DNA of 64,000 bases from Leucoraja ocellata (Eukaryota). Below, piece after piece: positions 1,984-56,279 of the stretch. Position 1 is the first letter of the stretch. Each line of letters opens with the position of its first letter. The stretch covers positions 4,030,001 to 4,094,000 of the forward strand of contig JAWMAR010000102.1 of NCBI GenBank assembly GCA_036785375.1. Reading direction: 5' to 3'. The notes below the pieces were generated by a model. The model did not search any database and was not told where the DNA came from. It saw nothing but the letters and a program-made list of their open reading frames with translations. A program made the position numbers and the translations under genes.

Positions 1984-2712
1984 GGTCCCCAGCAGTCCTT
2001 CCAGGTGAGACAGAGTTTCACATGCACCTCTAACTTTGTCTACTGCATTTAGTTTTCTCGATGTGGCTTCCCCAAACTCGGCGAGACCGAGAATAGACTA
2101 GCCGACCCTTTCGGCGAATAGTTGCACTCGGTCCACCAAGGCCTGTTGGATCTCCTGGAGTTAACCATTTTAACTCCCAATTTCCATACTACCCTGGCTG
2201 CCCTGGGTAACCTCCATTGCTAGAGGGAGGCCACATGTAACCTAGAGAATTGGCACCTCGTATTCCGCTTGGGTAGCTTACAGCCTAATGGTATGAATAA
2301 TGATTCCTCCAATTATAGGTGACTAATCTGCAAACAACCCTACACTCAACCCCCCCCCCTTTTTTTTTTCCATCCCCCTCTTCCTTGTGCACCACCTTGA
2401 TTCGCATTCATTTATCCCCTTGTCCCCTTCCATTTATATTTTGGCCTCTCACTTCACAATTTACATGTCTATCCTTATCTCACACTTTGTTTTTTAATCT
2501 CTGGCCCTAGTCCAATCAATCAAAGACCTCCCTCACCCGTATCTACCTATCATTTGCCAGGCTTTGTCTTTCCACCACCTCATCCAGCTTTCTCCTCCCC
2601 ATTCCCGCACCCCCACCCCATCACAATCACACTGGAGAAATGTGCTGATCCAAAATGTCACCTTTCCATTTTCTCCAGAGATGCTGCTTGGCCCGCTGAG
2701 TTATTCCAGCTC
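1984..2712 (+). mobile_element. Degenerate Penelope-like element 3' fragment (GIY-YIG endonuclease remnant plus tail)
   Basis: Translates GPQQSFQVRQSFTCTSNFVYCI*FSRCG...GETENRLADPF...LGSLQPNGMN with stops; followed by a pyrimidine-rich UTR and the recurrent ...GAGATGCTGC...CCCGCTGAGTTATTCCAGC tail. Confidence 0.75.
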
Positions 2713-5700
2713 TCAGTAGTACTCTTATAGTCTTTTAGATTCAGAAAGAGCAAACCATCTTGAACAATGACAAAAGTGTTATTCTTCTGATGGATGAAAG
2801 TGGCTGGGTAAATTGAACAACTGGGCAATTTGTGACCATTTGTGTATTTCGCAAAAAGTGTTATATCTGGTACTCTTTAGAAAATATTTTGACTTGAAAA
2901 AATGAACCCTTTACATCAGTAAATTAATTTCAAAAGGGGTATTGCCTCATCACTAGTTCTAGTTTCTAAATTCTATTTTGCTGTTGTTGATCAAACTACA
3001 TAAAATCTTTCAAAAATATAGAAAAGCACGTTGATTTATTGATTTGTTGGGGCCATTGGTGTATAATCAATGTTATTGTGCTGTGGCTAGAAAGGTAATC
3101 AAACACAATGTGAGCCACACTCAATATTTACATTACCAGTTCTCTCTAAAGTCGTCTTGCAACCAAGATGCTGTGTTTATGTTGTAATGTATTTATATCA
3201 AAGGTGGTCTTGTTTATTTTTAAACATATTAAGGAGTTTATTTAACCATGGATGTAAATAGTTTTAATGACTAGTGCTATGAGCTGCTATTCAAATATTC
3301 TGCACTTAATTACTGTTGCAAATTTGATCTGTAATTCAAATTAAAGATTTGAAATTGAATTTGTAATTTCAGATTCAGATAAAGATGTGATTATAAGAAT
3401 AATGAGCTTTCAAAATGGGAAATATCTTTGTATAAGCCATTCAAGATATACAACATATACTCTTAGTTTCCTACTGCCTACATAAGCTGTAGCCAGCGAA
3501 CTGAGTACTGGGGAAATTTTGTATTCAAACTATGATATGCTGATATGTTTGGAGGGAAAAAGGACCTTGTATTGCATGTCCAGAGATCCTTGAATAAAGA
3601 AGACGGATAAATATGTTGAGGGAGCATAGCATTGTTTTCTTGGCCTGAGTTTTATAATCCAAGAGCAGGAATGCTGTGCTTGAACTGTTTAATATGTTAG
3701 CCCAGAGCTGAAATATTGTCATGCATTGGCTTTCTGCTCACTGGTTAGCACGCAACACAAGCTTTTCCCTGTACCTCGGTACATGACAATAAACGAAACT
3801 GTAATATGGCATACAGTTCCAGTGCTATAGTACTAAAGAGTGTACAGTTGAGATTTGAGGGAGTTGGGGCTGGAGAAATACAATTGTGAATAAAGATTGG
3901 GTCTATATTTTGTAAAACATATTAAGCTGAGGGAAGGAATAATTGATTATAACAGCGAGAGCTTTGGGATGAGTTAATGATGGAGGTATTTAATGCAGCA
4001 GAGACATCAGTAATTGGGGGTTAGATTTAAGGTATTTGGGAATTTAGAGTGTTGACCTTTCACTCAAAATGGGTTTGGAACTCCTGTGTTTTTCAAGATT
4101 AATATTTTAGACCTTGGCTTGAAGATCCAGAATTTATTTTTATTGTAAATCCAAACGGTACCAGTAAATTGTTTTCTTTGTTTTCAAATGATCTGGTAAT
4201 TCATGAGTGCAAATGTTAAATACAACTGCAGATGATTGAGATCTGAAATGAAAACAGACAATGCCGGAAACACTAGGACCAGGCAGCGTTTCTGGAAAGA
4301 GAGTTTATTTCAGATTGACGACAGTTTATTTCAGATGCTGCCTGCCCTGTCCCATAATCATAAATAAATTATGCCGGGGGTCTTTAAAAATGCATCATGT
4401 GCCTCCTCGTTACAAGACTACTCAAGAAACATGTTGAGCCTTGGAGACAAGAGATGATAAAAATACTGAATTACACTCATATAAATATGTGATTATTTTC
4501 TAAACTTGCAAAGCCAAAACATATATTGAACATTAACCATATTAGCAAACTTTATTGGAAGATGATTACGTTTTTGTAATGTCTAGGTCAAGTGGTTTCA
4601 TTAACTGACAGAAATCAACAAGTAATCAACGAGAAATCAACTGTATTTTTGAATTATTTTTTTAATCGATAGTCTAATCAATATTTTCTGTTCTTTATTT
4701 AAGTAAATTGTTTGATTGTCTGAAGTAAACTGGTTTCCTTCCTTTAGTCTAATGCAGCTGTTCTGGACTAACTTGCACTGATCAAAATGTACCGTACTGG
4801 ATGTTCAACAAAAATGTCAATATATTCGACGGTGTATGGTTTCTAACTCTGCCAAATTGCTGTAGGCATATCAGTGCATCAAATGAGATTGCATTTAATA
4901 CCATACAGATTTGGAAAGATTGCTATTTTAGAAGTGGCGTGTTGTGGGGAAATGAGGTACTTCGACTGAATCCATAATCATGATATAACTATATATGGTA
5001 GTAAATCTTTGCCTATCCTCAGCCTATATAACAAATGTGTCCCCGAACATTTAATAGATATTGATGCTTTTTGAATTATAAGCATGTTTATCCTGTACAG
5101 AGATTTTACTGCTGTATATCAAATAGCCAGAAACAAGTGAAAATAGTGATCTGTCTCAATGGCGGTGTGTTTTGTGAGTGCCTGTTGATTGTGCAGTTGG
5201 ATTGCCCATCTGTTCTTTTTTTGCTGCCTGATCTACCAGGAAAACTGTTAGTTTAAATCATTACTGTCCACAATCATGCACATTTTAGACACCTAAAACT
5301 GCTAATTAACACTGGTTGAATGCCTCTTTGTTAGGCGGCAGATCTGATAGGAGTTAGCATGTCAGCAGTGGGGCATTGACCAAGGAAGAAAATGACTAAA
5401 GATTACAGGTGAAAATGTATGTCAGTAGACCGGAGCTACAGTAGGGCTGTAAAGTTACATAAGTAGGTCCCGGTGTTTGTCCGTCAATGATTATGACTTA
5501 ATTTAGAACCTTTCATGTTGCTTGAAAATTGTTCCCAAAGTGTTAGTTTTTAAATGTAATATGAGCACTAAACATGGCTGTGGAAATCTGTCCCATTTCA
5601 CATTTAGAAATAATGAATCCAATGAAAGAGAGATTTTACTCTGGAACATCCCCACCCCACCCTTACTGACATTACATGGGTGGTTATTTATCATTTGACA

Positions 5701-6079
5701 TTGTGGAAAAACTTGAGGCCAGTCTTCACATGCCTACTGATGACACCCAACCTGAAGCTTGTTGCTTTGTTGGTGCACATTAAATTGTTGATGAGTCTTT
5801 TTTTTGTTGCAATTTACATTGGCAAGATCAAAGCCATCTGTTGCCTTCTGCTGGCAACTTGGTATCATAGCCAACAGCTTCATCCCCATTCATCTCTTTC
5901 CAATCTGGAAGTGCACAAACTCCATATCCCCTTTTAAATCTGAAAGCTATTTAATTTTACATCCAACCCCAGCGTGAACTTTTCAACATCTACCTCAAAA
6001 ACACCTTTTACCTCATATTTTACTTCCACTGAAAGCAAAATCCTAATTTGTGATAATTATTTATATTTGCTGCATAGCG

Positions 6080-6600
6080 AGCGGCAGCTTCGCCAGCAGC
6101 GTGTTCATCCTTTCAACTTTTCATTTTTTTGTATGTCTAAATATGTTTTAGTGGGGGGGGGGGGGGTTGGTTGGGGAGATAAGGGGAAACCGTTTCAAAC
6201 ACTTACCTCAACGGAGATGCGACTTTTCTCTTTGTCGAATCTTCGCACCCCTCGAGGCCTAACAACTGGATCCCTTGTCAGAGATCTCCAGAAGAAGTGC
6301 TCCGACCACCGGCCTGCCGACTATAACATCGTGAAGCCGCGGTCTGCAGAGCTTCTAGCGGTGAGCGCGGCGTGGACTTTCCATTGCGGAGCCTGGGATC
6401 CCTTGCCGAGGATCGCCAGAAGAAGTGCTCCGAACCGCCGGCCTGCGGCCTATAACATTGTGAAGCTGTGGTCTCCGGTAAGAAAGTGGCCGATTCAGGA
6501 ACTCCCGACGCCAGAGTTTCAATCATCCCGACGAGAGGGCTTGTACATCGGGCCGTCCACAGCAATACAGTGGGAGTGGCTTCACTGGCAGGTCAACACT
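6080..6600 (+). repeat. GC-rich interspersed repeat with an internal direct duplication of about 130-bp period
   Basis: GGATCCCTTG...CCAGAAGAAGTGCTCCGA...CCGGCCTGC...CTATAACAT.GTGAAGC..GGTCT occurs twice (about 6268 and 6396); a related copy lies on the opposite strand at about 34900-35285 (shared GGAGATGCGACTTTT). Confidence 0.65.
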
Positions 6601-7584
6601 GATTCAAGGTGTTGTCTTAAAAACTATCACCTTGAGGACAATCTGGGCCGAGCATTGGCCAATAAATTAACAAGAAGACCGTCCAAATACAAATTGTGTG
6701 ATGGAACCAAGAGAGGTGGGCAGAGCAGTTAAGTTGGATTGAAAATCCACCAAGAAGTAAAGTGTTTGGGCCAAGGAAGAATACCATCACAGAAGGACAA
6801 GAAAGTGAAATTAAGGGAAATGTGTGAGCTGTGCATTTCCTGAGTCTATAGCTAGGAATGAGGTGTGCTGAAATGTATTTTCTGTAGGGAACCATATGAT
6901 GTAATTATGTGATTGCATTGCAATTCCTTGCATGTAATTCATTGGGTTTTTTTCTAAGGTCATGCTTTAATTTGACGTTCAGACAGTTAAGAAAAAGGCC
7001 ACTATTTGCAAATAATTCATATGTCCCTAAAAGGTCTCTATACTTCAGCACTGTCAGTATTTGCTTTATGGTTACTATATTTCAAAGTACAGGTCCACCA
7101 CCAACTTTCTGGCAACTGGGGGTCTCTTGCCCCCCCCGGGAAGTCCCCCAGAAAATGTCGTGAGATGAGGCGGCCGATCTTGACCTCAACGGGACTTCAG
7201 CGCCGAAAGCCAGGTCGAATCTTTCTGGATCCTGGTTCCGTGGAGCTAGCAGATCGGTTCCCAGAGATTACTTCCCGGTCGATCAGCAGGTCACTCTCAA
7301 GCCAACAAAAGCATTGATGGCAATTTCAGCCGTAGTCAAGCTGAAGTAGAATTAAACAATGATAGCAATGTTTGGATTCCTTGCTTTGAAATCCCGTTGT
7401 CACTAGTTTTAGACAATTCATTTAATGTATTAACATGTTTTTGTCATGTAATGTTTACTTTTTCACAGCTTAATGCTGCACTTCTTTGTGCTATTGACAA
7501 ATTTTGGATATATGAGTTCCTGTTTCGTCATCTAGATCATTGAGGTCTCTAACACAACGGTCACTTGTAAGAACCTGTCAATTT

Positions 7585-8160
7585 TACTACATGATGCAAT
7601 CATAAAGAAAGCCCATCAACGCCTCAACTTCCTTAACAGATTGAGGAGATTCAATATGTTGATGAATATTCTCTTGAACAGTGCAACAGTACGGTATAGA
7701 GGATATTGACTGGTTGCGTCACGGCCTGGGTTCGGCCTTGGTCAGATTACCAAAAGTGGGTAAGACGGGTTTTTTATAACATCGTGAAGCCGCGGTCTCC
7801 ATCGACGGGATCTACAAGAGGTGCTATCTCAAAAAGGCAGCCAGCATATCAAGGACAACCCTGGCCTTGCTCTCATTTCACTCTTGCCCTTGGGAAGAAC
7901 GCATAGGAGTCTGAAAACTAACGTTCAGGTTCAGGAATAGCTTTTTCCCAACAACTGTCAGGCTATTGAACATTACAAACTAAAACTAAACTACAAACTG
8001 CACAAGGAACTTTGGGCTTTGTTTTGTTTTTGTATTATATTGGGATTTTTAATTATTTAACCTTTTTGTTTGTTCATTATGTTATTTATTGTTTAAAAAC
8101 CTGTGGTGGTGCTGCTGCAGGTAGGATTGTTCCATTTCGGAACATATCACAATAAAATAC
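7585..8160 (+). mobile_element. Degenerate Rex1/Babar-type non-LTR retrotransposon 3' fragment
   Basis: Remnant DAIIKKAHQRLNFLNRLRRF...ILTGCVTAW...RFRNSFFPT; homologous to the ORF at 28562-29590. Confidence 0.7.
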
Positions 8161-9428
8161 TTGTAACAATCGTACCTTGTCTTACCATTCAGCCACTTTG
8201 TTAAACTAATCGATGATTTGCATGAGAAAATAGAAGACTGAAATAGTGAGACTGGTTGGGGAAGGAATCTCCGCCACATATCTAACACACAGCTTCCCAC
8301 TAAAATTGGAAAATACATCAATAGCCTTCCACCCTAACTGCTCCTCTTCTCCCCCCCCCCCCCCCCATCTAAAAGCATTAAAATAAGATGAATTAAGGAA
8401 ACAGTTATAATTAAAAACAACAGATTTTCTTATTCATTTGATCTTCACAGCTTTTTTTTAAAATTAGAGATCAATTTTGTAAATGAGTTATGTTTCAATT
8501 AAACTTGTCTCTCTGTAATCTGATATTAAGCGCAATGTTAAATGTAATGTTCACTTGGTGCTTAGGGTAAATAAAGACGTTGACATGTGCCAGTTAAAAT
8601 GTTTTTTTTAATTACAGTTGTGCATGCATGCACTTCCTGTTCAGCTTCCTGCTTTCATGTTTTTCGCATAAGCACTCATGGTAATAATTTCAATAGAAAT
8701 GGAAGAATGGTTGCAAATTATTTTTAAATTCTTAATTTCCTTTATGGTTCCACTCTTGCGTGATGGGTTGTCTAGAACTTGCAATGTTACAGGCTACATT
8801 TTAAGTCAACATAATCAAGGAACATTTACAACCCCCGGTCATTCCCTCTTCCCCCCCCCCCCCCCCCCCCCCCCCACCCCCTATCCCATTAGGTAAAAGA
8901 AACAAAACATTGATAACACATATCAACAGTTTCAATGTTTCAGATCAAGTCTCTTTAGACTGAACCACCTGGCCCACTGAGTTCCTCTTGCATCTTTTTT
9001 TGTACAGTGGCTTGATTGTACTTGACTGGATAGAAAATCGTTTTTCACTGTTTTACATGTGACAATGAAAAACCAATTCCAAGTGCATTGACAGGCAGGC
9101 AGCATGAAAATTGAGAAGAAAATCTAATTTACATCAGTTCGTAAACAGCAATATTAATTGCTTGATGTTGAAGTAGATTAATTAGCACTAAAGAATAAGA
9201 AGATTTAATATTTGTAAAAGTCCCAGTTTTTGATACATTGGCTGTTTTGGGAGCATGGTGACAGCGGGCACCGAACAAGCCCTTGATTTTAATTAGAAAG
9301 CAGCAAGTTCTCTGGTTCATTGTTGATCCTTCATGCTAGTGACTACTTTATGATTTTCCCGGAATTGTGACCTGCCAAGACGGTTCCCTTTTAATGTCGG
9401 AAAGAACGGCAGATGCTGGTTTAAACTC

Positions 9429-9462
9429 GGTCTGAAGAAGGGTCTCGACCCGAAATGTCACC
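9429..9462 (+). ncRNA. Minimal hammerhead-ribozyme-like motif in a Penelope-derived repeat
   Basis: GGT-CTGAAGA-A-GGGT(CTCG)ACCC-GAAA-TG-TC-ACC fits CUGANGA/stem II/GAAA/UH with a 3-bp stem I; a similar motif lies at 27179-27212; activity unknown. Confidence 0.55.
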
Positions 9463-10177
9463 CGTTCCTTCTCTCCAGAGCTGCTGCCTGTCCCGCTGAG
9501 TTACTCCAGCATTTTGTGTCTATCTTGAGCTTGAAAGTACATCTTGCCTGCTTTTTGTATGAACTGGAGACAGATGATTGGTATTGATGCTGGGCAGTGA
9601 TCTGGCGTCTTTTGGCTCCCTTTAACAAACCAGTCTATGGTGTAAATTTGCTCAACACTTAAAGGTTTAGTAAGAGCTGCCAATGATCACGAGCGGATTC
9701 GCATCTGCTTTTGAATTAGAAAAAAAATGTTTTTGCCAAATGTGATAAAATCATAAATGTGCTATATAATGGAGTGTTAGAAAGCAATCTAACTTTGTTG
9801 CTTATTTTTGACTAAAATAAATCCTAATTTTTTTTTTTACAATGGTTGACAGAACAACTTTTGAATCATTTCATCAATTCCACAGAGTGGGTCTGGATAA
9901 TTAAAAATAAATCCCAAGTTGTGCTGTTTGTGCTATGCAATGTTGCTGGCTTTAAAATGGTCCCTAAACACAGGTTATTGCAAAAACGTTTACAATCTTT
10001 TGCAGTACTGCGCGTTAGTCTGTACATACATCATCGGGATCAAGTGAGACTGGAGTAAATGCTGCAAAAGAGATGTGCATATTTCTGCTCAACAGCTGAA
10101 ATATGGGCCCACATTTTGTGGGGAAATAATACAATTAAATACAATCCCAAAAGAACAAAAAAGATTTATTCAATTCT

Positions 10178-11314
10178 AAAATTAGGTATTGTAGGTGTCG
10201 GCGCATTTTTCCAGAATTTAAGTATAAGCTTTTTTCCCATTATTAGCCCGTAATTAAATAAATTCTTCTGAAACACGTTTAATTCAGGGTTATCTTCCGA
10301 TATTCCGAAGATAATCCATTCTGGTTTTGGTACCAGTTTTATTTTGATCAATTTTGAAAAAATATCAAATATTTCATACCAGAATTTTTGGATTTTTGTA
10401 CAAAAAACAAAAGAGTGCGCTATGGTAGCTTCTTGACATAGGCATTTATCACAGATTGGTGAAACATTAGGGAAGATTTTATTTAATTTAGTTTTTGAAT
10501 AATATAATCTATGTAATGTTTTAAATTGGATGAGCGTATGCCGTACGTTGATCGAACATTTATGCACCTGTAGTAAATGATTATCCCAGGTCTCTTTTGA
10601 GATTTTTATAGCTAATTCTTGTTCCCAATCTTTTCTAATTCCATCTGTTGTGGGTATTTCTATGTTTAAAATGATATTATATAAGTACGATATTAAATTA
10701 GCTGATTCCGCCTTGGTCTTCATTGCTTCATCCAATAAGTCGGAAGACATATTATGATAGTCTTTTGTGTGTGGATATCAAATATGTTTGAAACATTACA
10801 TCTGGAAGAGATGAGATTCCTCCTAGCAGGTAAAGCAGACCAATTTCAAAAGACGTGGTCTATGTTTCTGGACCTATTACAAGTATGAGGTGCAATAGTA
10901 ATCTAAAAAAACAAAAACAAATATATAAATAAGCGGAATCAGGACCTGGTAACGGGAGGTAAAATAACAAAAACAGACTTGGTTGGTAGTCCCCTTTCTG
11001 CGGAGTTTAATGTTATAATAGAGCGATTGTTTCTACTTTCTCTTTCTCTCTTTTCTAGGGTCTATTTTCTCACTTTACTTCCTTCTCTAACTTCTTTCCT
11101 AAGGGGCTTTCTTTTCCTTACACTCTTGCACTGCACGACTCTCTTGCACTTTCTTTACTTTCCTAACTTCTACCTTTTTCTTAAAGCTCTAAAAAAAAAA
11201 AAAATGAAGCGGTACAAAAAATGTATCAAGATATATGTGTTGTGTAGAATTGTAATTTACCGTACTTCTAATAAAAATTAAAAAAAAAAAAAAAAAAAAA
11301 AATTAAGTATTGTA
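10178..11314 (+). mobile_element. 5'-truncated, 5'-inverted L1/Tx1-like LINE with poly(A) and TSD
   Basis: Minus-strand ORF2 C-terminal segment (QFKTLHRLY...CDKC...HSFVFC zinc-binding region) joined at about 10770 to the plus-strand continuation WISNMFETLHLEEMRF...LLQV* (stop 10888), 3' UTR, AATAAA 11270, poly(A) to 11302; 16-bp flanking duplication with 1 mismatch. Confidence 0.88.
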
Positions 11315-11820: not shown

Positions 11821-11903
11821 GCTTTTCCTTCTCAATATGCGTTGCAGATTAAGTACACTGAAAATAGTTTTAAAAAACAAAATGTGCATTTTATTTGTTC
11901 CAG

Positions 11904-12037
11904 ATCCTCGCTGGGCATCGATAAACAGGGGTGTTTTGATGTGTGATGACTGCGGCAGTGTGCACCGCAGTTTGGGGCGACATATCTCTCAGGTACGGCA
12001 CCTGACGCACACACCCTGGCCTCCTACACTGTTACAG
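11904..12037 (+). CDS. GIT2: GIT2 coding exon 2 (ArfGAP zinc finger second CxxC and arginine finger)
   Basis: cag|ATCCTCGC...TTACAG|gtaaga; translates (D)PRWASINRGVLMCDDCGSVHRSLGRHISQVRHLTHTPWPPTLLQ; 134 nt; GIT-family ArfGAP motif. Confidence 0.96.
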
Positions 12038-14146: not shown

Positions 14147-15426
14147 GTGAGTATACCCGATTCTGGTTGGAGCATGTATTACATACAGAATCGCACCAAT
14201 GTAACAAGTAGATTTGAGACCCAAAACACCACCCATTCCTTCTCTCCAGAGATGCTGCCAGTCCCGCTGAGTTACTTCAGCATTTTGTGTCTATCTTCGG
14301 TTTAAACCAGCATTTGCAGTTCCTTCCTACACATGCTTTACTTCCTCTTTTACCCAGCCTACAATTTAAATATTTATTTTACTGCTTCCATGCTTTGTCC
14401 ACTTTTGCTTTAACCAACCGTACCCAATAACTCCCAGTTGACCTATATTCTTGACTCCCACCTTTCTGGATGGCCAGCAGGGATGGATCATCCTCTTTGT
14501 CACCCACCGGCTACTATTCCACTATGCCCGTAGCGTTTGAGGTATTTAGAGAGGCACATGAAGATACAGGCAATGGGAGGACATGAATCATATGCAGGCT
14601 GCTGGGGTTAGTTTAATTTGGCTTGGTTGTTAGCACAGGTATCACGGGTCGAAAGGCCTGTTGCTTTGTAATGCTGTTCTATTTTGTGGAACAGTTTATG
14701 TGGAGACTGATTAAGGTCTCACAGCTCCAGCAACTCTCATTCAATCCTGCCCTCAAACTGTCTGCATGGTTTTCCTGTGACCCTGTTGATTCCCCCCAAG
14801 TGTTCAGTTTCTCTCCGATGCTCCAGAGATAATTGGCTACTGCAAATCGTCCTTCGTGTGTAGGGGAATGCTGGGGGGAGTTGATAGGGATGAGGGGAGA
14901 TAAAAAGAACAGGTGCTATAATAGGATTAGTGAAAGATTTGTAAATAGGTGCCTGATGTTGGCATAGACTCTGTAGACTGAAGGGCCTACTTCTATGCTC
15001 GCTGTTCTTGCCATTGCTCTAACGTTTCTATATGGGTGCCTGACATAGGAATGTGTTCCATCTTTCCCCCACAGGTACGAGCCATCATTAACCATAATCT
15101 GCCTCTCAGTTATTTTTTGACGTTCCCAATATTTTCAAATGCAGTATAGTTTTAAAAGCACAATGTAGAAACAAAGACATACAGATGCTGGTTAATACAC
15201 AAAACGGCTTTAAGTGCTGGAGTATCTCTGAAGATCAGGCAGCATCTCTGGAGAACGTGGATAGGTGACATTTCGAGACGGGACCCTTCTGCTGACCCGA
15301 AACGTCACCTATCCAGAGATGCTTCCTGACCTGCTCAGTTACTCCAGCACTTTGTGTTGTTTAAAGTTTAAAACACATGCTTACTTCCTTGATTATATGG
15401 TTAACTTTTTCATTTTCATCATTCAG

Positions 15427-18310: not shown

Positions 18311-19754
18311 GTAAGTGTTCAGTGTAACTATTCTTAGTTACCATTATTGGGTCTTTGGCCTAAATTGTTAATTCTATTTCTCTTCACAGAGATGCGGTCA
18401 GATCTGCCGTGGATGTCCAGCATTGTCTGATTTTATTATACCATTAATGGTTTTGTATATGATTTGGATTACTCAGCATTTGATATTGAAATCATAAAAT
18501 AACACAGCATGGAAACAGGCCATTTGGCCCAACTTGTCCACACTAACCAGTGGGGCCCCTTTTCACACTATAATCGTTGCCCAGCTCAGGGTCCATAGCC
18601 CACTGTGTCTAAGCGATTCAAGTGTTCATCTAGACACCTAAATGGTGTCAACAACCCAGCTTCAACCGCTCTCTGGGTGAAGAATGTCCCCTCGGATTCT
18701 CCTCTGAATCTCTTTTTCTCCCTTAAACATTTCTATCAAACTCAGCTGTGGGAAAATTCCTGACGTCTACCCTATCCATACTCAGAAATGTATATACCCA
18801 AATCATTTCTCCCCCTTAACCTCTGCTCCCCAGTGAGAAGAGAACTAGAGTTGTTGCATAACTGACCTGCTCTATCCCAGGCAACATTCTAGTGATTTTT
18901 TTTCCTGCCCCCTCTCCTTCACAGACGCACCCCTCTTAAACCTTGGTGACCAGAACTGCACAAGATACTCCAGCTGTTGTCTGACCAAGCTGAAGCATAA
19001 CCTCCCTACTTCTGTATTTACATCCCCGTCTTATGAAGAACATTATCCCATATGCTTTCCCACCTATGTTGTTTACGTTTGTTGCCATCTTCAAGGATGT
19101 AAGGTAATCCAAGATCCAATCAAGCGCTTGTGCATTATTGAATTAAAGTAACATCCTAAATTGTGATATGGTATGAGGAAGTGAATTGCAAAATACCAAA
19201 CCTACACTTAAAAGACGAACTCTCACTCGTATCTCTGAAGGGAGAAAGTTTTCCCCACACCCATTTTGAACTGAGTGGTTTATTCTTCATATCCATTGAA
19301 TTGGGTTGAGAAGCTATTCCATTGACTTTAATCTTGTGCTTACTAAGTATGTGCAATAAAAGCAGCTTTGCCAATATCACCCTCTGTATTGTATAGAAGT
19401 TATTTTTGTAGCCATGATCATATTGAATGGCGGTGCAGGCTCAAAGGGCCGAATGGCCTACTCCTGCACCTAATTTCTATGTTTCTATGTAGAAAACTAT
19501 ATCTATTGTTCGAGAAAGAACTGCAGATGCTGGATAAAATCTAAGATAGACACAAAATGCTGGAGTAACTCAGCGGATGAAGCTAAAGAAGGGTATCGAT
19601 CCGAAATGTCACCCATTTCTTCTCTCCATAGATGCTGCCTCATCACTGAGTTACTCTAGCTTTTTATGTCTACCTTATACCTTTTGTTTGACATAAACTT
19701 AATAAATAACTAAAACTGTTTCAATGCTTTTTTTAAATTCCTGTTGCATTTTAG

Positions 19755-20304: not shown

Positions 20305-21550
20305 ACAGCTCGGCATTCAACACCACCACCGCTAAACTCCTTATCAAGCTTGGAAAACTGGGTCTCTGCACATCCCAATGTAATTGAATCCTCGACCTCC
20401 CAATCGAAAAACCACTATTAGTACAAATTGGGAACAACAGGTCCTCCTTAATAACCATTAATGCAGGACCATCTCAAGGTTGAGTGTGCTCAGCTCCTTT
20501 CTCCAGTCTCTATGCCATTGACTGTAGCCATATTGAATAAATAATAGGCCATAGTGAGTCAGAGTACACAAGAGTGATCGATGGTCTGAATAGTGCTAGA
20601 ACAACAATCTTCCTCTCAAAGGTAGACAAAAGTGCTGGAGAAACTCAGCGGGTGCGGCAGCATCTATGGAGCGAAAGAAATAGGCAACGTTTCGCCCCGA
20701 AACGTTGCCTATTTCCTTCGCTCCATAGATGCTGCCGCACCCGCTGAGTTTCTCCAGCACTTTTGTCTACATTCGATTTTTCCAGCATCTGCAGTTCCTT
20801 CTTAAAAATCTTGCTCTCAATGTTAGCAAAATCAAGTTGCTCATTGTTTAGTTCAGGAAAGGAAAACAGAGGGTCCATAATCTATTTATTCATTCATAGA
20901 CGGGACAGCAGCGGAGAATGTCATGTGCTTCATGTTTCTGGATGTACATATTCTGAAGATCTGTTCTGGGTTCAGTGCATTTGATGCAATCACACAAAAA
21001 GCTCACCAATGCCTCTACTTCCTTAAAAGGTTGAGGAGATTTGGTATGTCGCTAAATGCTCTATCGAACTTCTGCAGATGTACACTAGAGAGTACACTGG
21101 CTGCATCATGGTCTGGTTCGGGAATGAAGGGGACTCCATGAACTGGTAGACATCCTTCCCACCATCAAAGGGATCTACAGAAAGCGCTGCCTCAAAGGCA
21201 GGCAATAACATCAAAGATCAACACCAACCATGGCCACTCTCTTATCTCGCCACTTCCATTAGGAGGAAAGCACTGGAGCCTGAAAACCGTGACCACTAAG
21301 TTCAGGAACAGTTTCTTGCCAGCAACTATCAGTCACTTAAATACTGCATCATGAAAGACTACCTCAGCAACTGATCTTCAATGGAGTTTGTTTTGGTTGC
21401 ACTAAGGATGTGGGTTTTGTACTGGTATGACTAGAATTACTGATTATTAATTTATTGAATTATAAATATATTTCTGTGTTAAATGGCCTGTTAGGATGCA
21501 GCAAATAATAATTTCAGTGTTCTGTTGCCCTTACCTATGAAAATTAAACG
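20305..21550 (+). mobile_element. Degenerate Rex1/Babar-type fragment interrupted by a nested palindromic element
   Basis: SAFNT-like remnant at about 20310 and DAITQKAHQCLYFLKRLRRFGM...KFRNSFLPA; split at 20620-20806 by an insertion. Confidence 0.72.
20620..20806. repeat. Palindromic Penelope-tail-derived short element (73-bp inverted arms)
   Basis: 20622-20694 is the reverse complement of 20698-20770 except for 1 mismatch; flanked by the direct repeat AATCTT(C/G)CTCTCAA. Confidence 0.88.
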
Positions 21551-22270: not shown

Positions 22271-22282
22271 GTAGGTTATAAA

Positions 22283-22462
22283 CACGAAAAGCTGGAGTAA
22301 CTCAGTGGGATAGGCAACATCTCTGGAGAGAAGGAATGGGCCTAGGTCTCAACCCAAAACGTCACCCATTCCTTCTCACCAGAGATGCTGCCTGTCCCGC
22401 TGAGTTACTCCAGCTTTTTGTGTCTACCGTTTAAATCAGCATCTGCAGTTCCTTCTTACACG
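22283..22462. repeat. Palindromic Penelope-tail-derived short element next to the exon 7 donor
   Basis: AAAAGCTGGAGTAACTCAGTGGGATAGGCAACATCTCTGGAGAGAAGGAATGGG ... CCCATTCCTTCTCACCAGAGATGCTGCCTGTCCCGCTGAGTTACTCCAGCTTTT; same family at about 9400-9525, 15170-15360, 19515-19675, 31363-31565. Confidence 0.8.
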
Positions 22463-22954
22463 GGTAGGTATAAAAGTGCTTTGGAGAATCCTGATGGATT
22501 TTCTCACAGTTTATAGAAAAATGCAATTCTAACCAATATTTGCCCAAGGGCTCCTCTGCAGAATGCAGTTTGACGTACCATGGAATGCGGGATGCAAGCC
22601 TGCACCTGTGTTTCTAGTGCATCAAACAACTAATTATATAATACAGCAGTGTTTACAAAATATAGGCCAAGCATATCCTCCACAGAAATAATTTATGATT
22701 CTAGCAAATAATTCCACCCCTTTTCTGTGTGATAAGAGCAAAGGGCGCATTAGGGGCAAGTGGGCAGAAATTAGAAGACAAATAAGATAAGGTGGGGAAG
22801 AAAATTTACATGTTGAGGAATGTTTTGAAACAAGAAGAGAAAGGACACAGTGCATTTATAGGCTGTGTTAAATTGACTGCAGCAAACGTTTTGATATGTC
22901 TTGCACTCATTTTTTCATGGTAAGATTTTTCTACTAAATAATCTATTTGGAAGT

Positions 22955-23555: not shown

Positions 23556-26500
23556 GTGAGCCAAAGTGTTTTATTGTGGCAAAGTATGAATTGGTGCTTG
23601 ACTGTTATTGTGTGTGCGTGCGTGTCCACCGCTCACTACTGTCAGCTGTTGAGTTTGCAAGTGTGGTTCTGGAATCCCTGCAAGATGATCACTACCCACT
23701 GCTAATCTTGTTGAGACATGCACCTCCATTTTAAGCTGTGGCACTTGTGGTATAAGGAGTGCAGCTGCCTGGCTTTGGAATAATGTCTTGCAACAAGCAG
23801 TGAAACATGAACACAAAACACCATTGTTTTTTAAATGCTGTCTCTATGTATGTACGCTTATTTTCCTGTTTTAAATTCCTATATCCACGTTTAGGCATGA
23901 GAGGTGATGATTCAACCCAATTACTCTAATTATATTGTTCCTGGTCAATCGCAAACCATTATTTATTGTACATCACCTTTCTCATATTCTCCCACCATCT
24001 GTTTATCATTTTTAACTCCACAAGTGTCAGTTTTTGTTTTGGTGAATATTGTCATGTAAATATGATGCATTGTTCATTTTTTGTTAGGTTATAACCTAAC
24101 TTGGGATAAATATTTGGCAAACCTTATTTATCCCTTGACTTGTCATTGCTCTAATTTGTATTTAATTAACTGCTGCCCATACCCAATAACTTTTGAACCT
24201 CGCTTTTTACTAATTTAATTTCACAGTCAACACTTTTCTCAATTTTATAAAGAAACTTAATAAAGCACTGAGAAACACAAGACAATATAAGTTACCTTTT
24301 TGTTTTGTGCACTTTAGATCAACTTTTGTAACTATGGTATGACTAAATTATAATATCAAGATGATAAAATAATAACTGTGCATATTATTGCAGAAGTAGT
24401 GTTTGTATTTGCAGTGCTAGTTCCACACTACTAGGAAGTGAGATGGAGCATGGCCTGGAGCTCTCAAATGCAGCTTTTGCTTTTGCATACCTCCAAACCT
24501 GTCCTATCCATGTATCAGTCTAACTTTTTCTTAAATGTTGCGATGGTCCCTGCCTCAACTACCTCCTCTGGCAGCTTGTTCCATACACCCATCACCCTTT
24601 GTGTGGATAAAGTTACCCCTTAAAAAGTTACCTCTTAAAAATACATCATACAAAAAACATTGAAATCATACTCCTACAGTGCACTAAAACCTTAATATTT
24701 GAACATTTGTTCAGTATATCTTTTTACTTTAAATGACATGCAATATATTCCCTTTGAACATAAAGGTGCAGCCCACTTAATTACAGCAATGGCTTTTGTT
24801 CTTTGGGTGCGGCATTGATCCAATTATTTCAATGAATAAAATAGACCAAAGATAGACACAAAATGCTGGAGTAACTCAGCGGGTCAGGTAGCATCTCTGA
24901 AGAAAATGGATAGGTGGCGTTTGGGGTTGTGACCCTTCTTCTGACATAGAAATGGAATGAAATAGACCAGTTGCTGCCATCTGCTGGATCAATGAGTTTG
25001 TGCAGCTTAGTTATAAAACTGAAAAGGAAACTGCCAAATACATAACAAGGGAGTTTTGTGCTACAAATAATTAAATGTGGATTGAGAATTGAATTCAATT
25101 GAAGTTTCCACGTGAAAATCGCAGTCATCTTGGATTACAGAATTTGAGGATACAGGTGCAAGGATCTTCCCCATTTTGAATTTTATACACTGTTTTGGTC
25201 ATCTTGCACGGAAGGATATTGTTGATGTGGAGAGAAATCAATGAATATGTACTGGACTATTTAACAGGATGGGAAAGCGGAGGTTCATGGAGCGATCAGA
25301 TTGGTCAGGGTTATAATTAACAGTGTATAGAAAAATGTATACAGAATATATCATAGAAACCTATAAAATTCTAACAGCACTAAAATGACTAGTTGCAGGG
25401 AGGATGCTCCAGGTCTCTGGAGTGTCAGGATCCAGGGGTCACAGCCTAGGAAAACGGGCAAGCCATTTAGAATTATCATCGAGAGAAACCTCCACTCGGA
25501 GCGTGGTGAATCTGTGGAATTCTCTGCCACGCCAGCAACAGAGGATATTCATGAAGGAGTTGATATATTTCTTAATGTCAGAGGGATATTGGGGATAAGG
25601 TGGTGAGGAGTATTGAAGTGGATGATCAACCATGATCTTGTTGAGTGGAGGAGCAGACCCAAAGTGATTAATGGTGCTCTTATTTTCCAAGTTTCTATCC
25701 CCCGAAAAGTTGTCTTTAAAGGCATAGGTCACAGTTCACTCTGGATGTGACACAATCTCCTGGTCCTCTTTCACCTATTTCCCCCTCTTCACATTTTGCT
25801 CCCCTTCCACCTTATCTTACATTCTTCTGACAGATGGGTGGACAAAGGCCAGAGATAAAAAAGGGACAACCAAATGTCCTCCTCACCTGTATCCACATCC
25901 TATCACTTACACGGGCTTTCGCCAACACCACCTCTTATCCAGCCCACCCCAACCCCCCCGCCCCCTCCCAACTATCCATCTGAAGAAGTATTCCAACCCA
26001 AAACTTCACCAATCTATGTCCTCCAGCGATGCTGCCTGACTTGCTGAGTTACTCCAAAACTTTTTTTTATAAACCGGCATCCGCAGTTCCTTGTGTCATT
26101 ATTAAATGGACCTGTCCTCCAATTCTGTTTTATTTTGGTTATCCATGAAAAGTTCTTTGTGCAGGATGGAACTGCAGATGCTGGTTTAAACTGAAGATGG
26201 ACACAAAATGCTGGAGTAACTCAGTGGGCCAGGCAACATCTCTGGAGAGAAGGAATGGGTGACGTTTTGGGTCGGGCTAGTCTGAAGAAGTGTCTCTCTA
26301 TCCAAAACATCACCCAAACGTTCTTTGGGTTCTATGTAATTGAAACATGTAGGATTTTGAGAGGACATTACAGGGTAAACGTTGAAAGCTTTTTTCACTT
26401 CATAAGGGGAATTCGGAATTATTGGGTGTGGACAACAAGCTGCCTCCCATTCAAGCTGGCAATGATGTCATTTCCTATCATAGGAGATCATCAATATTTG

Positions 26501-28606
26501 AAATCCTCTCACCAGAAAGCAGTGGAGGTTGAGTCATTGAACATATTCAGAGCCAAGATAGAAATTGTTCTGCGCAAGGGAGTCAAGAGGTATGGGGAAA
26601 ACACAGAGAAGTAGAGCTGAGGCCAAAATCAGATTTCATGATTTTAATGAATTGCACTGTCTGCTCAATGGTTCTTGTCTCGATTTTGCTGCTTAATGGC
26701 TGTTTGACTGACTCACAATTGTTTGTGCTCTGATACGGAGATTGTCAGTGACATCCAATGCCTTAATGGAATTAATCACAGGTTTATCAGAGAAAAATAC
26801 AAACAAGAGGACCAAGCAAACACTGCTATCTCTGTCCCTGAAGTACAATAATGCTTCATTATTTTCCATTCTATCAATTGCCTTCTTCAATGATTTTTCA
26901 ATCAGCATGTGGCATCTGAATCAATTGGCTATATTTCAAGCATAGATTCAAGTGTGCCTTGTGAATGTACTTTTACATTGCGCAGAAAGGGTTGGAAGTG
27001 AAGAAAACAAAAGATCTATAGTAAGGTAGACTTCTCTGCAATGTAAAACCTGAACCATTTCTAACTGATCAGTACTAATGAAAGGTCATTAGTCAGAGAT
27101 TTAGTTCTGTTTCTCTCCATAGACATCGCTGAGAATTTTCAGTTTATAATTGTAGAATTCAAGCATCTGCAGCATTTTGGTCTGAAGAAGGGTCCTGACC
27201 TGAAACATCACCGATCCTCTTTCTCCAGCGATGCCGCCTGACCAGCTGAGTTACTCCATTATCTGTGTCTACCTTTGGTATAAACTAGCGTCTGCAGTTC
27301 TTTTTTTCTGCTGTATTCTTCATCAGTAAGTCCCGTCACTGATCTTGAGAGATGATGTGGCTGCTGAAAGCACCATGGGCAATCTTGAGCTTGCCATTGC
27401 ATGCGGCCCACCAGATTATCACTGGCTGGTAGCTGATAGCTGAATCTTTCAGAGCAATAGCAGAATTTTACCTCGATCAGATTACTGTGTATAGGTATAT
27501 GATCAAAGATTGTGGAGGAAGGAACTGCAGATGTTGATTTACACCGAAGATGGACACAAAGTGCTGGAGTAACTCAACGGGACAGGCAGCATCTCTGGAG
27601 AGAAGCCATGGATGATGTTTCGGGTCGATCATGTTTTGCTTGGGCAGCTTACAACCCAGCAGTATGAATATTGATATCTCTAACTTCAAGTAATCCTTGC
27701 TTTCTCTCGCTCTCTTTCCCTTTCTCTCTGTCTCTCCCTCACCCTAGTTCTCCGACTATTTCACTGTTCTGATTAATTACAATTATATTTTACTAATTGT
27801 ATGCCTTGTCACCTTCACCATAGCTAACAATGTATCATGTCCTTATCACCGTCTGCTTTGATCTATAGTTTTCACACCTTACCCTACCATGTCTCTAGTC
27901 TCCCCCTCCCCTGACTCTTAGTCTGAAGAAGGATCTCGACCTGGAACGTCACCCATTCTTTCTCGAGAGATGCTGCCTGTCCGGTTGAGTTGCTACAGCT
28001 TTTTATGTTTATCTATGGTCAAAGATTGTTGACCTCCTAGATCAGCGTTTCTCCTTTCCGTTAGAATGAAATGTGCGTGCATTGTATGCAGGAATTAATC
28101 AAAGTATTAATCAGTGTGCGAATTGATTTCACGCAGTTTATGCTTCTGTCATATTGTAAATGTTGGTAGTGTTATTGCATAAACTCAATAAATATCTTTC
28201 CACTTATTTCTTGAACGCAACCCTTTGGAATAAAGGCACCTGTAAGTAATACATAACTATATAATTACTAGGTCCAATAGCTGATGATGATCAGTTTAAT
28301 GTCAACAAAGATACTTGTATTAAAATCCATGTGTGTTGTGATCCTTACCTTTAATGGAAAAACATAAGTCTGTGATTCCCATCCCAGATTGTGTCTCTGA
28401 TGATCAAATTCTCGGGGGAGAGATTTGAATCAAGATAATATTATTAGTGGTGTTTCAGTGCTCGCTCTGTTTGCGTATTTTGAAATAACTTGACCATGAC
28501 CACGTTTTTTTGTATTAAGAATCAATTATGCATGCAATGCAGTAAATAGTCACTTCGTATTATGATGTGTTCAAAGTTGTTGGGTTGGGATGCACCTTCA
28601 ATTACT

Positions 28607-29805
28607 GGGATGAGCTACGTCCGGATGCTCTTTGTGGATTTTAGTTCAGCCTTTAATACAATCATTCCGGACATTCTCATAGGTAAACTGGTCACTCTCG
28701 GCCTCCCCACTGTCACATGTGCCTGGATAAAGGATTTCCTCACCAACCGGCCCCAGACTGTGAGACTCGGCCCCCACCTCTCCTCCACTCGCAGGTTGAG
28801 TACCGGTTCCCCACAGGGCTGTGTGCTAAGCCCCCTCTTATACTGTCTCTACACCTACGACTGTAGTCTGGCCCACAACAACAACCGCATCGTCAAATTT
28901 GCTGACGACACTACTGTGGTCGGACTTATTTCGAAGGGAGACGAGGCAGCCTACAGAGAGGAAGTCCTGAAGTTGACAACCTGGTGCTCAGAAAACAATC
29001 TGGCTCTGAACACCAGGAAAACAAAAGAGCTCATTGTCGACTTCAGGAGGCACAGCACCGACTTAGCCCCCCTACACATCAACGGCGAGTGTGTGGAGAG
29101 GGTCAACACCTTCCGGTTTCTCGGTGTCCATATCACTGCTGACATCTCCTGGACGGACAACACGACAGCGGTCATCAAGAAGGCTCAGCAGCGGCTGCAC
29201 TTCCTGAGGGTCCTCAGGAAGCACAACCTGGACTCTAACCTGCTGCTGACCTTCTACCGCTCGTCCATCGAGAGCCTGCTGACATACTGCATTACAGCAT
29301 GGTATGGCAGCTGCACCATGGCAGACAGGGAGAGGCTTCAGAGGGTAACCAGGACAGCGCAGAGGATCATTGGCTGCCCTCTCCCCTCCCTGATGGACAT
29401 CTACACCTCCCGCTGCCTTAGCAGGGCAAAGAAGATCATCAAAGACAGCTCCCATCCTGCGTTTGGACTGTTCGACCTGCTGCCCTCTGGAAGGCGCTAT
29501 AGGTGCATCAAATCCAGGACAAACAGACTCAGGAATAGTTGCTTTCCGAGAATTATATCTACTATAAATTCAAATTCACACATGCACTGACTACACCGCC
29601 CAACACGGACTTCCATCTGTATATATGTATATATGAATGTAGCGCCGCAGAATTTGTGCACCTATTCCCCCCCCCCCCCCCCATCTCCCTTCTGTTTTTT
29701 GTTTTTCTGTCTCTTGTTTTTTGTGCTAAATTGTATGTATGCACTGAGTAAGAGCAGCTTTCAGTTTCACTGTACATGTATAGTGACAATAAATGGCATA
29801 TCTAT
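28607..29805 (+). mobile_element. Young 5'-truncated Rex1/Babar-type non-LTR retrotransposon with an open RT C-terminal ORF
   Basis: Uninterrupted [19 protein letters not shown]...[13 protein letters not shown]...[12 protein letters not shown]...[11 protein letters not shown]...RLRNSCFPR (stop 29590); GC-rich; 3' UTR ending GTGACAATAAA. Confidence 0.92.
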
Positions 29806-30107: not shown

Positions 30108-31661
30108 GTAAGTTTTCTTTGATTTTGACACTGATGTGGTTTGTGGCGGAAAATGATCGTCATACAGCATTGAGCTTGAAACCAAGGCCTAGTCTTAATT
30201 TGTTCACTTTTGCACACAATCCAAGAACATTGGTTTCCTTGTCAACTCGTCAAAACCACCATCTCTTCTCAGCTTATCTTTACAGCCTGGTCATTCCTCC
30301 TCTTCCCCTCTCACATCAGGCAGAATATACAAAATCTTAAAAGCACATACCTTTCAATTCAGGAACAGCTTCTTCCCTGCTGTTAACAGACTACTGAATG
30401 GTCCTTCCATAAGCCAGTGTGTAGTCCCGATCTCCCACGCTACCTCTTTGAGGACCTTGCACTTGTTTTTATTTGCACTTTCTCTGTAACGGCAACACTA
30501 TTAAGCTGTAACACTATATTTTACCATGTGACATTTTTCTCTTTGCACTACCTGTTGTAATGTGAAAGGCATCATTGCACTTGAGTACAGTTTGATTTGA
30601 CTGGATAGCACACTAACCTTTTCACTGTATCATGATACATATGACAATATAACAATACAATTACCATTTTACAGCTGCATTTACTATTTGGCTTGCTTGG
30701 TTGGCCTTTTGATGCAGTAACCCCATTCACCAGATCATTACATAATTGCACTTTGAGGTTTGAAAGCAAGTAAGAATTGTTTTTCTAATTTGCAACCAGA
30801 GCTACAAGAAAGGAGGTGTAGCCTTTCACAAGAAGCTAAAAATGGCTATGTCTATGCATGTTGCATATGCAGAACAGAAAGTAGGCATGTTTTGCATGTA
30901 CCTTCCTTCCCACCCACCTACTTTGGTGTCATCCTCAGCTCTTGGTGACCCTTCCCTTATCCTTCCACGACAAAGCCCACCCTTCCCATCGCTTCTCCAC
31001 ACCATCCTATCTCTGCGAGCTGATTCCTCTCCCCCTCCCCCTTGCTCTCACAACCACCTTGTTCTTATGTAGACCTGTTAGCATGTTTGTGAGTGGTGAC
31101 AGATAACCTCCAGAGTATTACTATTCTGTTTGTGAGGCATTCAAACTCCTTCTTTTTCTTTGTACTGTACATAAGAAAGTGGAAGGAAGGAATTGAGGAT
31201 TTTGCCGAGTCAAGATAGATACATTTATTTTTGACTGCTAATTTTCAGAAACGGGAACTTGGTATCAAACCTGCAGTTTTTTTTTAATCTATTACATGCA
31301 ACTTATTTTTGTTTTAGTTACATTTTATACTCTATTTTTCAAACTATTCCAATTTAATTTGAAGACACAAAGGGCTAGAGTAACTCAGTGGGCCGGGCAG
31401 CAACCCTGACGAATATGGATAGGTGACGTTTCTGAAGTCCGAAGAAGGGTCCTGACCCGAAATGTCACCTATCCATGTTTGCCAGAGATGCTGCCAGATC
31501 CGCTGAGTCATTCAGCCCTTTGTGTCTTTTCTATTTAAACCAACATCAGCAGTTCCTTGCTTCTCCAATTTTATTAAATGTTATTTTTAAGTGGGTTCTC
31601 AGAGTTTATGTAGTTGCATTTTAATTTATCTCAGCAGTACAATAATTATTTTTCTTTCTAG

Positions 31662-40040: not shown

Positions 40041-41937
40041 CAACATGATGATGGGGAGAGGAATAGCTGAAGGTTTTATATTAAGTAAGATGGTTCTCCG
40101 ATGTGAAAAGATGAATCATGTGTTATGCATATTTAAATATTGATTGATCCAACTGAATTTGTTTGTAGCTCTTTGCCTGTAATTTATTTGTTGCATAGTA
40201 AAACTGCTTGAGATGTTATGGTTATTATGGAGATTCTAATCACTCAGAGAAGGCAGATCAGGAAGTGAAATCTCAGAAGTGATAATTCAGTGTGTGTTTA
40301 ATAATTAATTTTGGTCTGACCCAGATATAATCTGTTCAGTAGCCTGTAGCTCAGTAAAGGAAGTAATTCAATAACCGTTTTACAATGGCTGTCGGATAGT
40401 AGCAAGATCTTAAATTACTCCATGTGCAGTTGATGCTAGTAACGGAAGCTGTTTGCAGTCTCTCTGAAGAGTAGAGGGAAGAAACTTGATCAGTTTGGCT
40501 CAGTGATTCATGAAAATGGCAGGGTAGTTTAAAGGGAATAGAATGACATTTCCAATCTGATCTGCAGTTTAAAAAAAAAAAAAGAAATTAGCATATAACA
40601 GTTAACCTTGATGATTTCCTTTCCCTTGTTACAAATACGTTGTTGTAATTTCATTTTCAGTTGTGTCAGCAATCAAAAATTAACCCAGCAAGAATTATCA
40701 TTAAATTTAACTTTTATCTGCCTTATTTGGTCCCATTAACAAACTAATAAGGACGCAAAGTGCTGGAGTAACTTGGCGAGTCAAGCAGCATGTCTGTAGA
40801 ACATGGCAGGTGATGTTTCATGTCAGGAAGTTTTGTCTAATAAGTTGTAACTGAAAGATCTTTAGATTTTTTTTTTTAAGTGTGAAATATTTGTATAAGA
40901 GTTGAACAATCTACACAATTATTTAGAAGAGAAGTAGATCCTTCAAGGCACAAAATAATCCTTGATTATATTTATTAATTTATTATAATGTACTGGAAAA
41001 TAAAAGACCTCTAAAGTGCAAAATCATCTTTTTAATTGGACCAAGATGCCATATCCCAACACAATCTCTGCCTAAATTGAAAACAACTTTTTTTGTCATT
41101 AATTTAATCTATTAATCTGTAATCTATAATCTATTGTATCTGCAAAAGTTATTTGGGTGGCAGCTGAAATAGTTTGTATTTAAATAGTGTCTCTTATCCC
41201 CTCGCACAGTGCAAAGCACATCACTGAATTTTAAATATAAACAGTGGGTGGATTGTGTAACCTTGCCCAAATGGCCATATTCTCTACTTTTGCATAGAAA
41301 TAAACTGCAGATGCTGCTTTATATCAAAGTTAGACACAAAGTGCTGGAGTAACTCAGTGGGTCGGGCAGCATCTCTGAAGTAAAAGGATGGGTGACATTT
41401 CGGGTCGTGACCCTTCTCTTGACTGTGTGACATTTCGGGTTGGGGCCTTTCTTCAGACTACCGTGACGTTTTGGGTCGGGGCCCTTCGTGATCCCTTTTC
41501 TCCAGAGATGCTGGAACCTGTGAAACCTGTAACTTATCAATACCTAATAAACCATTATCAGCTTTGTATATTCTAGATGCCTTTTGTATCTGTATCTTTA
41601 TATATCAAGATGTAAGCAGCTCTCTACACAGCAGTAAGAAATGCTGTCATTTAATCCAGTCCCGTTGCCGTTGCATGGGCAGAGTAAAGAGCAAACCATT
41701 CCACGAATTATTGCTTTCACCAATTCAGCTTCCTTGCATAACTCGTGCTTTAAGGAGTAAAAGGGCTTAGTACAATTTATGCTACTGTAGTTAATATTCT
41801 GCACATGTTTATTATTTCAGAATGCCTCTTGTCCAAATTATTACACTATATTTGGCACTTTTAATGGAGTTTTTTTTATTGAAGGTATCCATTTATCTCA
41901 GTTCCAGTGTGTGTATATATATACTCTACATATATAC

Positions 41938-42178
41938 TCTACAGTATCTTTTTGTGACTTGCATTAAATTCTCAATACATGTAAATAGCTGTCTGCATAC
42001 ACACCTCCACAAATATATATATATATGTATAATATATATATATATTTGTTTGTTTGTTTAAATAGATCTGAATCTTGATGTATTGAGAATAAAGAAAGAT
42101 ATACTGTGGAGGTGTGTATGCAGACAGCTATTTACATGTATTGAGAATTTAATGCAAGTCACAAAAAGATACTGTAGA
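41938..42178. repeat. Perfect 74-bp inverted repeat with a 93-bp AT-rich spacer
   Basis: 41938-42011 is the exact reverse complement of 42105-42178 (checked by eye). Confidence 0.92.
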
Positions 42179-56090: not shown

Positions 56091-56279
56091 CTCTTGCCGA
56101 AAGGGTAAGCCTAAGAGCATAGGGCGGCACGGGGAGAACCCTATTCTGGAAGCGGATGATCCAGATGTGGAACCAGATTCCACGCTCCCCAGTACGGAGG
56201 ATGTCATTCGGAAAACCGAGCAAATCACAAAAAATATTCAGGAGCTGTTGCGTGCTGCACAAGAAAACAAGCATGAGAG
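56091..56279 (+). CDS. GIT2: GIT2 coding exon 18 (start of paxillin-binding/FAT-like domain)
   Basis: tacaag|CTCTTGC...GAGAG|gtgaaa; SCRKGKPKS...LPSTEDVIRKTEQITKNIQELLRAAQENKHE(S); 189 nt; AAG acceptor. Confidence 0.94.

Follow-up and report, generated by a model that had tools for sequence, protein, structure and literature searches.

The motif at 9429-9462 on the + strand of the window, by which we mean the whole 64-kb stretch of DNA that was analysed, is by its sequence a minimal type I hammerhead of Penelope-like elements (PLEs), and the ~100-nt end-piece on which it appears to lie derives from a Neptune-type PLE, an intact parent of which is present in the same genome. Taken as a whole, we hold it highly probable that this is a PLE hammerhead on such an end-piece, likely inserted by the element's own protein and now likely an inactive passenger in intron 1 of a GIT gene. 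The host gene runs on the + strand, with an ArfGap domain at 11903-12037 and GIT1_C matches at 56104-56280 and 61276-61479. Because the window begins 2.8 kb downstream of the first GIT coding exon and the ArfGap exon (11903-12037, +) is coding exon 2, the 9429 motif is placed in the sense orientation in intron 1. The gene is likely GIT2; the terminal motifs are what we take to favour GIT2 over GIT1, the matching PDB chains being GIT1 only.

Read along the + strand, the motif consists of the 5' strand of stem I (9429-9431), CUGAAGA (9432-9438), an extra A (9439), stem II (9440-9451), GAAA (9452-9455), UG (9456-9457), UC (9458-9459), and ACC (9460-9462), with the predicted cut after 9459 and with C15.2 decayed to U. 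Every part of the motif that an earlier note on this DNA had described was found in its place. The CUGANGA, GAAA, and UH core elements occur in type I order at 9432-9459 and are accompanied by other features that match the PLE type, namely an extra A between positions 9 and 10.1, a 4-bp stem II, and a loopless palindromic stem III. The note's assignment to the PLE type is thereby supported, the extra A being a described hallmark of PLE hammerheads in the available text of PMC4209133. In the 9432 copy the core letters and stem II are perfect, and the pair at 15.2-16.2 is a U.G wobble arising from CpG decay. Its 3-bp stem I is atypical of the family: 99 of 115 sequences lack pairing at the third position of that stem.

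A loose motif pattern was weakly above chance (12 seen, 5.9 expected, with 1 of 100 shuffles as high). A descriptor search of the kind that the earlier note had proposed, run with a structural descriptor on 1.444 Mb of genome, retrieved 49 motifs, all within one repeat family, and 0 matches in each of five Markov-1 controls; no other hammerhead family was found by it in that sample, and within the window the 9432 copy is the only one that passes. An Rfam search of the motif returned no hammerhead model at E<=10, and folding z-scores were not significant (0.25 to 0.9 for the motif and −1.7 for 9400-9530). The predicted local fold of 9400-9530 disrupts stem II. In predicted folds of this segment and of an equivalent segment in the intact parent locus (L121:5440-5585), a purine run across A9-G10 pairs with a pyrimidine run that follows the cut site and masks the core; this pyrimidine run is absent from one subfamily.

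The family has 30 matches in the window. The earlier note had cited the repeat at about ten places, all of which do hold family copies, but its count fell short of the total. The sense arm at 9425-9526 (+) is an end-piece (pLTR) of the largest subfamily, starting ~7 nt before the core and ending at the proximal 3' end, and it is adjoined by an inverted arm at 9395-9426 (− strand), a ~32-nt distal tail matching that of the 14214-14335 copy at 28/32 positions. A search around 9395-9526 revealed no target-site duplication. An old copy at 1984-2716 (+) carries a GIY-YIG C-terminal remnant, a pyrimidine-rich UTR, a decayed hammerhead, and a tail; its remnant (1984-2316) is 49% identical to amino acids 1107-1220 of the intact parent (E 4e-18), and a second remnant is present at ~27635-27690, confirming that GIY-YIG coding sequence precedes the tail. 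This second remnant belongs to a head-to-head insertion at 27514-28018, which joins an antisense tailed arm to a sense arm (last GIY-YIG codons, UTR, and broken hammerhead) and is flanked by an 11-bp duplication at 27503-27513 and 28019-28029. The other sense copy that the earlier note had singled out, at 27182 (27175-27305, +), has a 5-bp stem I and intact core letters but fails the descriptor, the basal pair of stem II (10.1-11.1) being G.U and that at 15.2-16.2 a C x A mismatch. Likewise, the antisense copies cited at 24915 and 58755 are family copies (24829-24948 and 58683-58787, both −), but their cores are broken.

Further head-to-head pairs, each with one arm tailed, lie at 15173-15373 (cores broken or missing), 19502-19679 (sense core broken), 20599-20809 (joined inside stem II), 22277-22464, and 31358-31563 (sense core broken), and the segment 25973-26316 holds a sense copy lacking G12 (25973-26095) together with a head-to-head pair (26154-26316). 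In front of an antisense copy at 41290-41500 (−) the hammerhead segment is repeated directly in short units, every one of them damaged. Direct duplications of ~33-39 nt of the hammerhead segment alone occur in the genome (41290-41500, −), and they occur also in RNA reads (joints 5492 to 5459 of L121); undamaged, such duplications would amount to natural close dimers.

Other features of the region were observed in passing. A long hairpin with an AT-repeat centre (41941-42175) matches miRNA models below threshold and is a different fold-back element. The GIT introns contain LINE remnants, a 346-aa RT frame and a C-terminal zinc-finger fragment (28550-29587, +; 10169-10777, −), the latter fragment missing from the duplicate locus L001. 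The window region recurs ~255 kb downstream on the same contig (~4.29-4.31 Mb; L001, L032, and L052) at 97-98% identity, and the 9429 element is identical over 330 nt between the two. The paired loci, here and in many other places, are probably uncollapsed haplotypes.

A search for RT fragments with a query from a relative gave 37,055 candidates in the genome, and 7 of the 150 that were scored have open frames of >1000 aa. Locus L121, a partial tandem whose unit measures 3946 bp, contains an ORF of 1221 aa spanning RT and GIY-YIG domains (Pfam RVT_1, E 1.4e-6; GIY-YIG weak, E 0.012; both scores below the curated cut-off). Between RT and endonuclease its linker reads C-x4-C-x2-C, and a CX2-5CxxC linker is read in both L121 and L011; a Cys linker marks the Neptune and Nematis clades in the available text of PMC8557442, and we assign the element to the Neptune type by this motif, which is common to Nematis, rather than by an RT tree. 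In L121 the hammerhead, with the same tail, stands ~120 nt past the stop codon, and the next start codon follows it by ~165 nt. Hammerheads are found at both ends of intact ORFs in L121, L123, and L125, which is the pLTR location. The hammerhead of the 9432 subfamily follows RT-bearing loci (L092, L105, L107, L112, and L118), and no intact ORF linked to that subfamily itself was found. We counted 736 element ends in the 1.444 Mb sampled (392 in 844 kb and 344 in 600 kb, L181-L182 being left out as duplicates of L179-L180), or ~1 per 2 kb, 48 of these ends having an intact fold, together with 63 ORF pieces, 1 of them at the N-terminus. As the assembly, by its repeats probably that of a cartilaginous fish, comprises 3.44 Gb in 5847 contigs, the sample is 0.04% of the genome; extrapolation from this mostly intronic sample of an assembly with duplicated haplotypes gives ~1.7 million ends and ~10^5 intact motifs. 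Partial tandems, inverted truncated copies, an optional tail, and target-site duplications were all found in the family. A distant PLE RT fragment (L238:717-1772), 36-39% identical to L121, represents a second family with no hammerhead seen downstream.

When 280 copies were clustered on columns located 3' of the ribozyme, six groups of at least 10 copies (255 copies) emerged, 5.8-14.4% diverged. The core is kept in all six subfamily majorities apart from CpG decay at G12, and the differences between subfamilies lie in loop 2 and position 17 and in U-A to U.G changes within stems I and II. Once CpG columns, G12 among them, are excluded, 0 of 11 core columns vary between subfamilies versus 20 of 61 downstream (p=0.028), whereas among 141 individual copies the core has decayed at 6.5% versus 7.7% for invariant flank positions (p=0.14). 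The conservation above the flanks to which the earlier note had looked was therefore seen between subfamilies, where the core is fixed, but not among copies, which decay neutrally, a pattern that fits selection acting in master elements and none in copies. Across 115 distinct sequences stem II is 90.9% paired, with G-C at 10.1-11.1 in 90 and C-G at 15.2-16.2 in 76. Stems I and II show one-sided U-A to U.G changes only (29 and 25), the subfamilies being too similar to one another to give a strong test. Covariation in these stems, on which the note had also counted, did not appear: no compensatory covariation was seen among these 115 close sequences, and two-sided changes numbered 2 versus 6.2 in shuffles.

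Neighbouring copies were arranged head to head in 130 cases and tail to tail in 11. The family has two 3' end points ~35 nt apart, and of 60 pairs that could be classified, 51 have the tail on one arm and not on the other (expected 29.8, p=1e-8), a rule that was replicated in an independent sample (32 of 43; expected 20.6, p=4e-4) and holds for 83 of 103 pairs combined, with 20 exceptions. Because many pairs are flanked by a single duplication of ~7-17 bp, each pair represents one insertion event. The arms of 64 pairs differ by 14.5% versus 24.2% between random copies, and the family includes copies that run through an uncut ribozyme. The segment at 9395-9526 is the shortest form of this inverted pattern, a tail-only inverted arm with a sense arm. 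One-tailed head-to-head pairs suggest priming from both nicks. We propose that the element's protein would nick both target strands and prime reverse transcription from each nick, with one nick priming at the distal and the other at the proximal start site of an uncleaved RNA; most cDNAs would stop at the ribozyme or a little way upstream before being joined by microhomology, an outcome that at 9395-9526 would be the tail-only inverted arm plus the sense arm. Two head-to-head pairs (L167:5067-5264 and L184:4891-5019) have in common a rare one-base insertion in the core and a 3' flank, and for these reasons are likely carried inside another repeat.

Much of this resembles what has been described for endonuclease-bearing (EN+) PLE insertions of the Neptune clade, which in the available text of PMC8557442 and PMC3846280 share with our family a single RT + GIY-YIG ORF, a Cys linker, partial tandems, head-to-head inverted ends within one target-site duplication, and a 30-40 bp tail on one end. 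There the one-ended tail is treated qualitatively and ascribed to endonuclease resolution or to self-priming on antisense RNA, whereas here it was counted (83/103) and is read as priming at two start sites. According to the available text of PMC11167929, the protein of the Anolis Poseidon element PAc nicks and extends both strands, with two start sites bounding the tail, and its ribozyme needs the element's protein and is dispensable for insertion in vitro. In PAc as in our family, reverse transcription starts at two neighbouring sites downstream of the hammerhead, and no RNA reads end at the cut site. In PAc the start sites and ribozyme overlap the ORF start, whereas here they lie in the 5' UTR; that text reports no strand preference of the start sites and does not address their pairing within one insertion.

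The point at which copies stop admits a second account. Of 300 core-spanning copies, 238 (~78%) end close upstream of the core, only 67 of 300 having native-like pyrimidine-rich upstream sequence, and 32 of 43 solo copies with a duplication have <=8 nt between it and the core. The largest step loss of copies falls just past an AGT, and the largest of the listed piles of loose 5' read ends, in RNA of a related organism, falls on the same A. So sharp a stop is not accounted for by plain random truncation; it fits either transcription that begins at an initiator-like motif or a stall ahead of the C-rich UTR. The short copies might accordingly not be aborted 3' copies but complete run-off copies of the 5' end of a master transcript, that is, solo pLTR products, transcribed from an initiator-like TCAGT just before the core and reverse transcribed from the same two 5' UTR sites. 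The figures above speak for such an origin, as does the internal TATA-less promoter of Drosophila Penelope (PMC2377424). However, the ends are spread over ~10 nt, the stopping rate climbs already inside the ribozyme, solo copies show no clear cap-derived extra G, and polymerase stalling before the C-rich UTR would look similar. We regard the run-off origin as a real possibility, somewhat short of an even chance; it would alter the origin of the short copies and not their status as passengers.

The UTR before the core (L121:5335-5453; 27690-27920) is a pyrimidine tract ending in CAG, often with a GT at the stop codon, and resembles the Drosophila Penelope intron that ends at stem I. Splicing of the 3' UTR up to this CAG, as in Drosophila Penelope, was considered and found unsupported: solo copies have no common upstream exon, and no GT-AG joint was found among the best 15 of 102 RNA read joints. 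Splicing there would not lengthen stem I.

The earlier note had taken the repeat for a separate non-autonomous, ribozyme-bearing element. Against that proposal speak the diagnostic letters that short copies have in common with RT/GIY-YIG-linked copies of their own subfamilies, and the absence from the 1.444 Mb of arrays with more than 2-3 ribozyme units. Its stronger form, a self-standing retrozyme-like family spreading via ribozyme-cut or circular RNA, strikes us as improbable. It gains from the excess of ends, >10:1 over ORF pieces and several hundred to one over N-termini, from rare variants common to both arms of a pair (23/415 vs 7.8/459), by which diverged copies could be templates, and from a preprint (10.64898/2026.07.22.740005) whose available text reports retrozymes in one chondrichthyan. 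The non-LTR retrozymes of that preprint also resemble our copies in being non-coding, in having a type I hammerhead, and in their PLE pLTR origin; they are nonetheless tandem units, each with its ribozyme, whereas copies here are solo or inverted. Ribozyme-bearing tandems in the 1.444 Mb were limited to 2-3-unit, mostly damaged direct repeats, longer arrays lacking the core, and the sole tandem derivative lacks CUGANGA. Junctions, moreover, vary from copy to copy, and the diagnostic letters are common to ORF-linked copies. Nor do 5' ends favour the cut site: 1 of 625 copy ends falls at position 1.1, and the rate around the cut site is no higher than beside it. Ribozyme-cut RNA was on this ground rejected as the insertion template, since 5' ends do not pile at 1.1.

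The tandem derivative just mentioned is a young 66-bp derivative of the tail, in 2-7 units, that begins at GAAA and has neither CUGANGA nor stem II. It occurs at L241:6179-6367, L243:4055-4357 and 5927-7602, L244:9248-9728, and L227:7307-7531 with differing flanks, and from sequence it looks mobile without a ribozyme.

The minimal hammerheads described from metazoan PLE pLTRs are the closest match to the 9432 motif. In the available text of PMC4209133 (Cervera and De la Pena 2014), they share with it the type I core, a nucleotide between 9 and 10.1, G10.1-C11.1, and a palindromic 15.2-16.2, and they are mostly single dispersed copies tied to truncated PLEs, with some opposite-strand pairs. The stems differ, being 2 bp (I) and 4 bp (II) here versus 4-5 and 7-8 bp in the Schistosoma families, with a 2-bp stem I in Drosophila. 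So does the load, an extrapolated ~10^5 here versus ~9,000 in Xenopus and 4,000 in coelacanth, figures obtained with differing descriptors and, here, from an assembly with duplicated haplotypes. Cartilaginous fish do not appear in the available text of that study, and examples may already be listed in its supplements or in those of the preprint. Single minimal hammerheads were inactive there, and dimers weak. Domesticated intronic hammerheads of the RECK type show locus-specific conservation and full tertiary contacts. By comparison, the 9432 copy has no loop-1 design and differs from its subfamily majority at ~4/100 positions. The 9432 element is, by the features tested, a minimal hammerhead of the PLE type carried on a truncated insertion of an EN+ PLE.

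The earlier note had further suggested that sense copies could cleave the GIT pre-mRNA. With introns assigned a strand from exon order, strand skew being weak, 633 intronic copies divided into 324 sense and 309 antisense, and intact ones into 22 and 20 (OR 1.05, 0.56-1.97), in a comparison that detects harm rather than cutting and that a sense deficit below ~45% could escape. A sense excess of perfect copies, noticed post hoc (14:3, or 12:3 without two duplicate loci), was abandoned when 600 kb of new introns gave 8:10. Among 13,579 reads of a related organism, aligned to the young subfamily only, the ribozyme is deeply covered with no pile of read ends at the cut site, nor any site where many molecules start or end, in libraries of a kind that reveal ribozyme ends poorly and in which the signal is drowned by passive copies; the best 15 of the 102 read joints included none at the cut site. 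Neither a sense-strand depletion nor a read-end pile therefore bears out the suggested cleavage. Some cleavage of the GIT pre-mRNA may still occur, because a slow hammerhead cut in an intron need not harm splicing (available text of PMC2995048). That sense copies cut host pre-mRNA at a meaningful rate, alone or as a 9432/27182 pair, is nevertheless very unlikely. The 9432 copy does have all core letters and a perfect stem II, but the predicted fold of its surroundings disrupts that stem and there is no orientation bias either way. As to the pair, the stem III segments of 9432 and 27182 have become fully complementary through CpG decay running in opposite directions; the cross stems I measure 5 and 3 bp, and 0.97% of 3403 pairs (83 copies) score as well. 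Against this, the criterion was post hoc, the two copies are 17.7 kb and at least one exon apart, and the double hammerhead is modelled at −12.6 kcal/mol versus −27.4 for an inactive strand-swapped duplex. Their complementarity is treated here as chance. Least credible of all is that the two have drifted into a matched double hammerhead excising the 17.7-kb stretch with its exons, and that in cartilaginous fishes such pairs add up to an unnoticed level of pre-mRNA cutting; were it true, the ~10^5 intact motifs would supply accidental hammerhead pairs across the genome.

Returning to the reading of an inactive passenger, the ribozyme would be selected only in master elements, where cutting would need a partner copy or the element's protein, and a lone copy with a stem III wobble would cut rarely or never, a rare slow cut being likely tolerated by splicing. 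The copies are likely harmless passengers rather than regulators of the GIT gene, because they are decaying and have not been purged from gene introns.

The 9429 motif is in itself an ordinary example of an already described motif. Our literature search, which covered listings and excluded subscription journals and supplements, found no paper dealing with PLE hammerheads of sharks or rays, or with paired priming. This genome is a very large natural sample for the open question of what the PLE hammerhead does: its copies show that introns tolerate intact sense copies and that the ribozyme is left uncut in the integrated template. Testable predictions on PLE insertion, for which an in vitro system exists (available text of PMC11167929), follow from the rule of one tail per head-to-head pair and from the stop just before the core.
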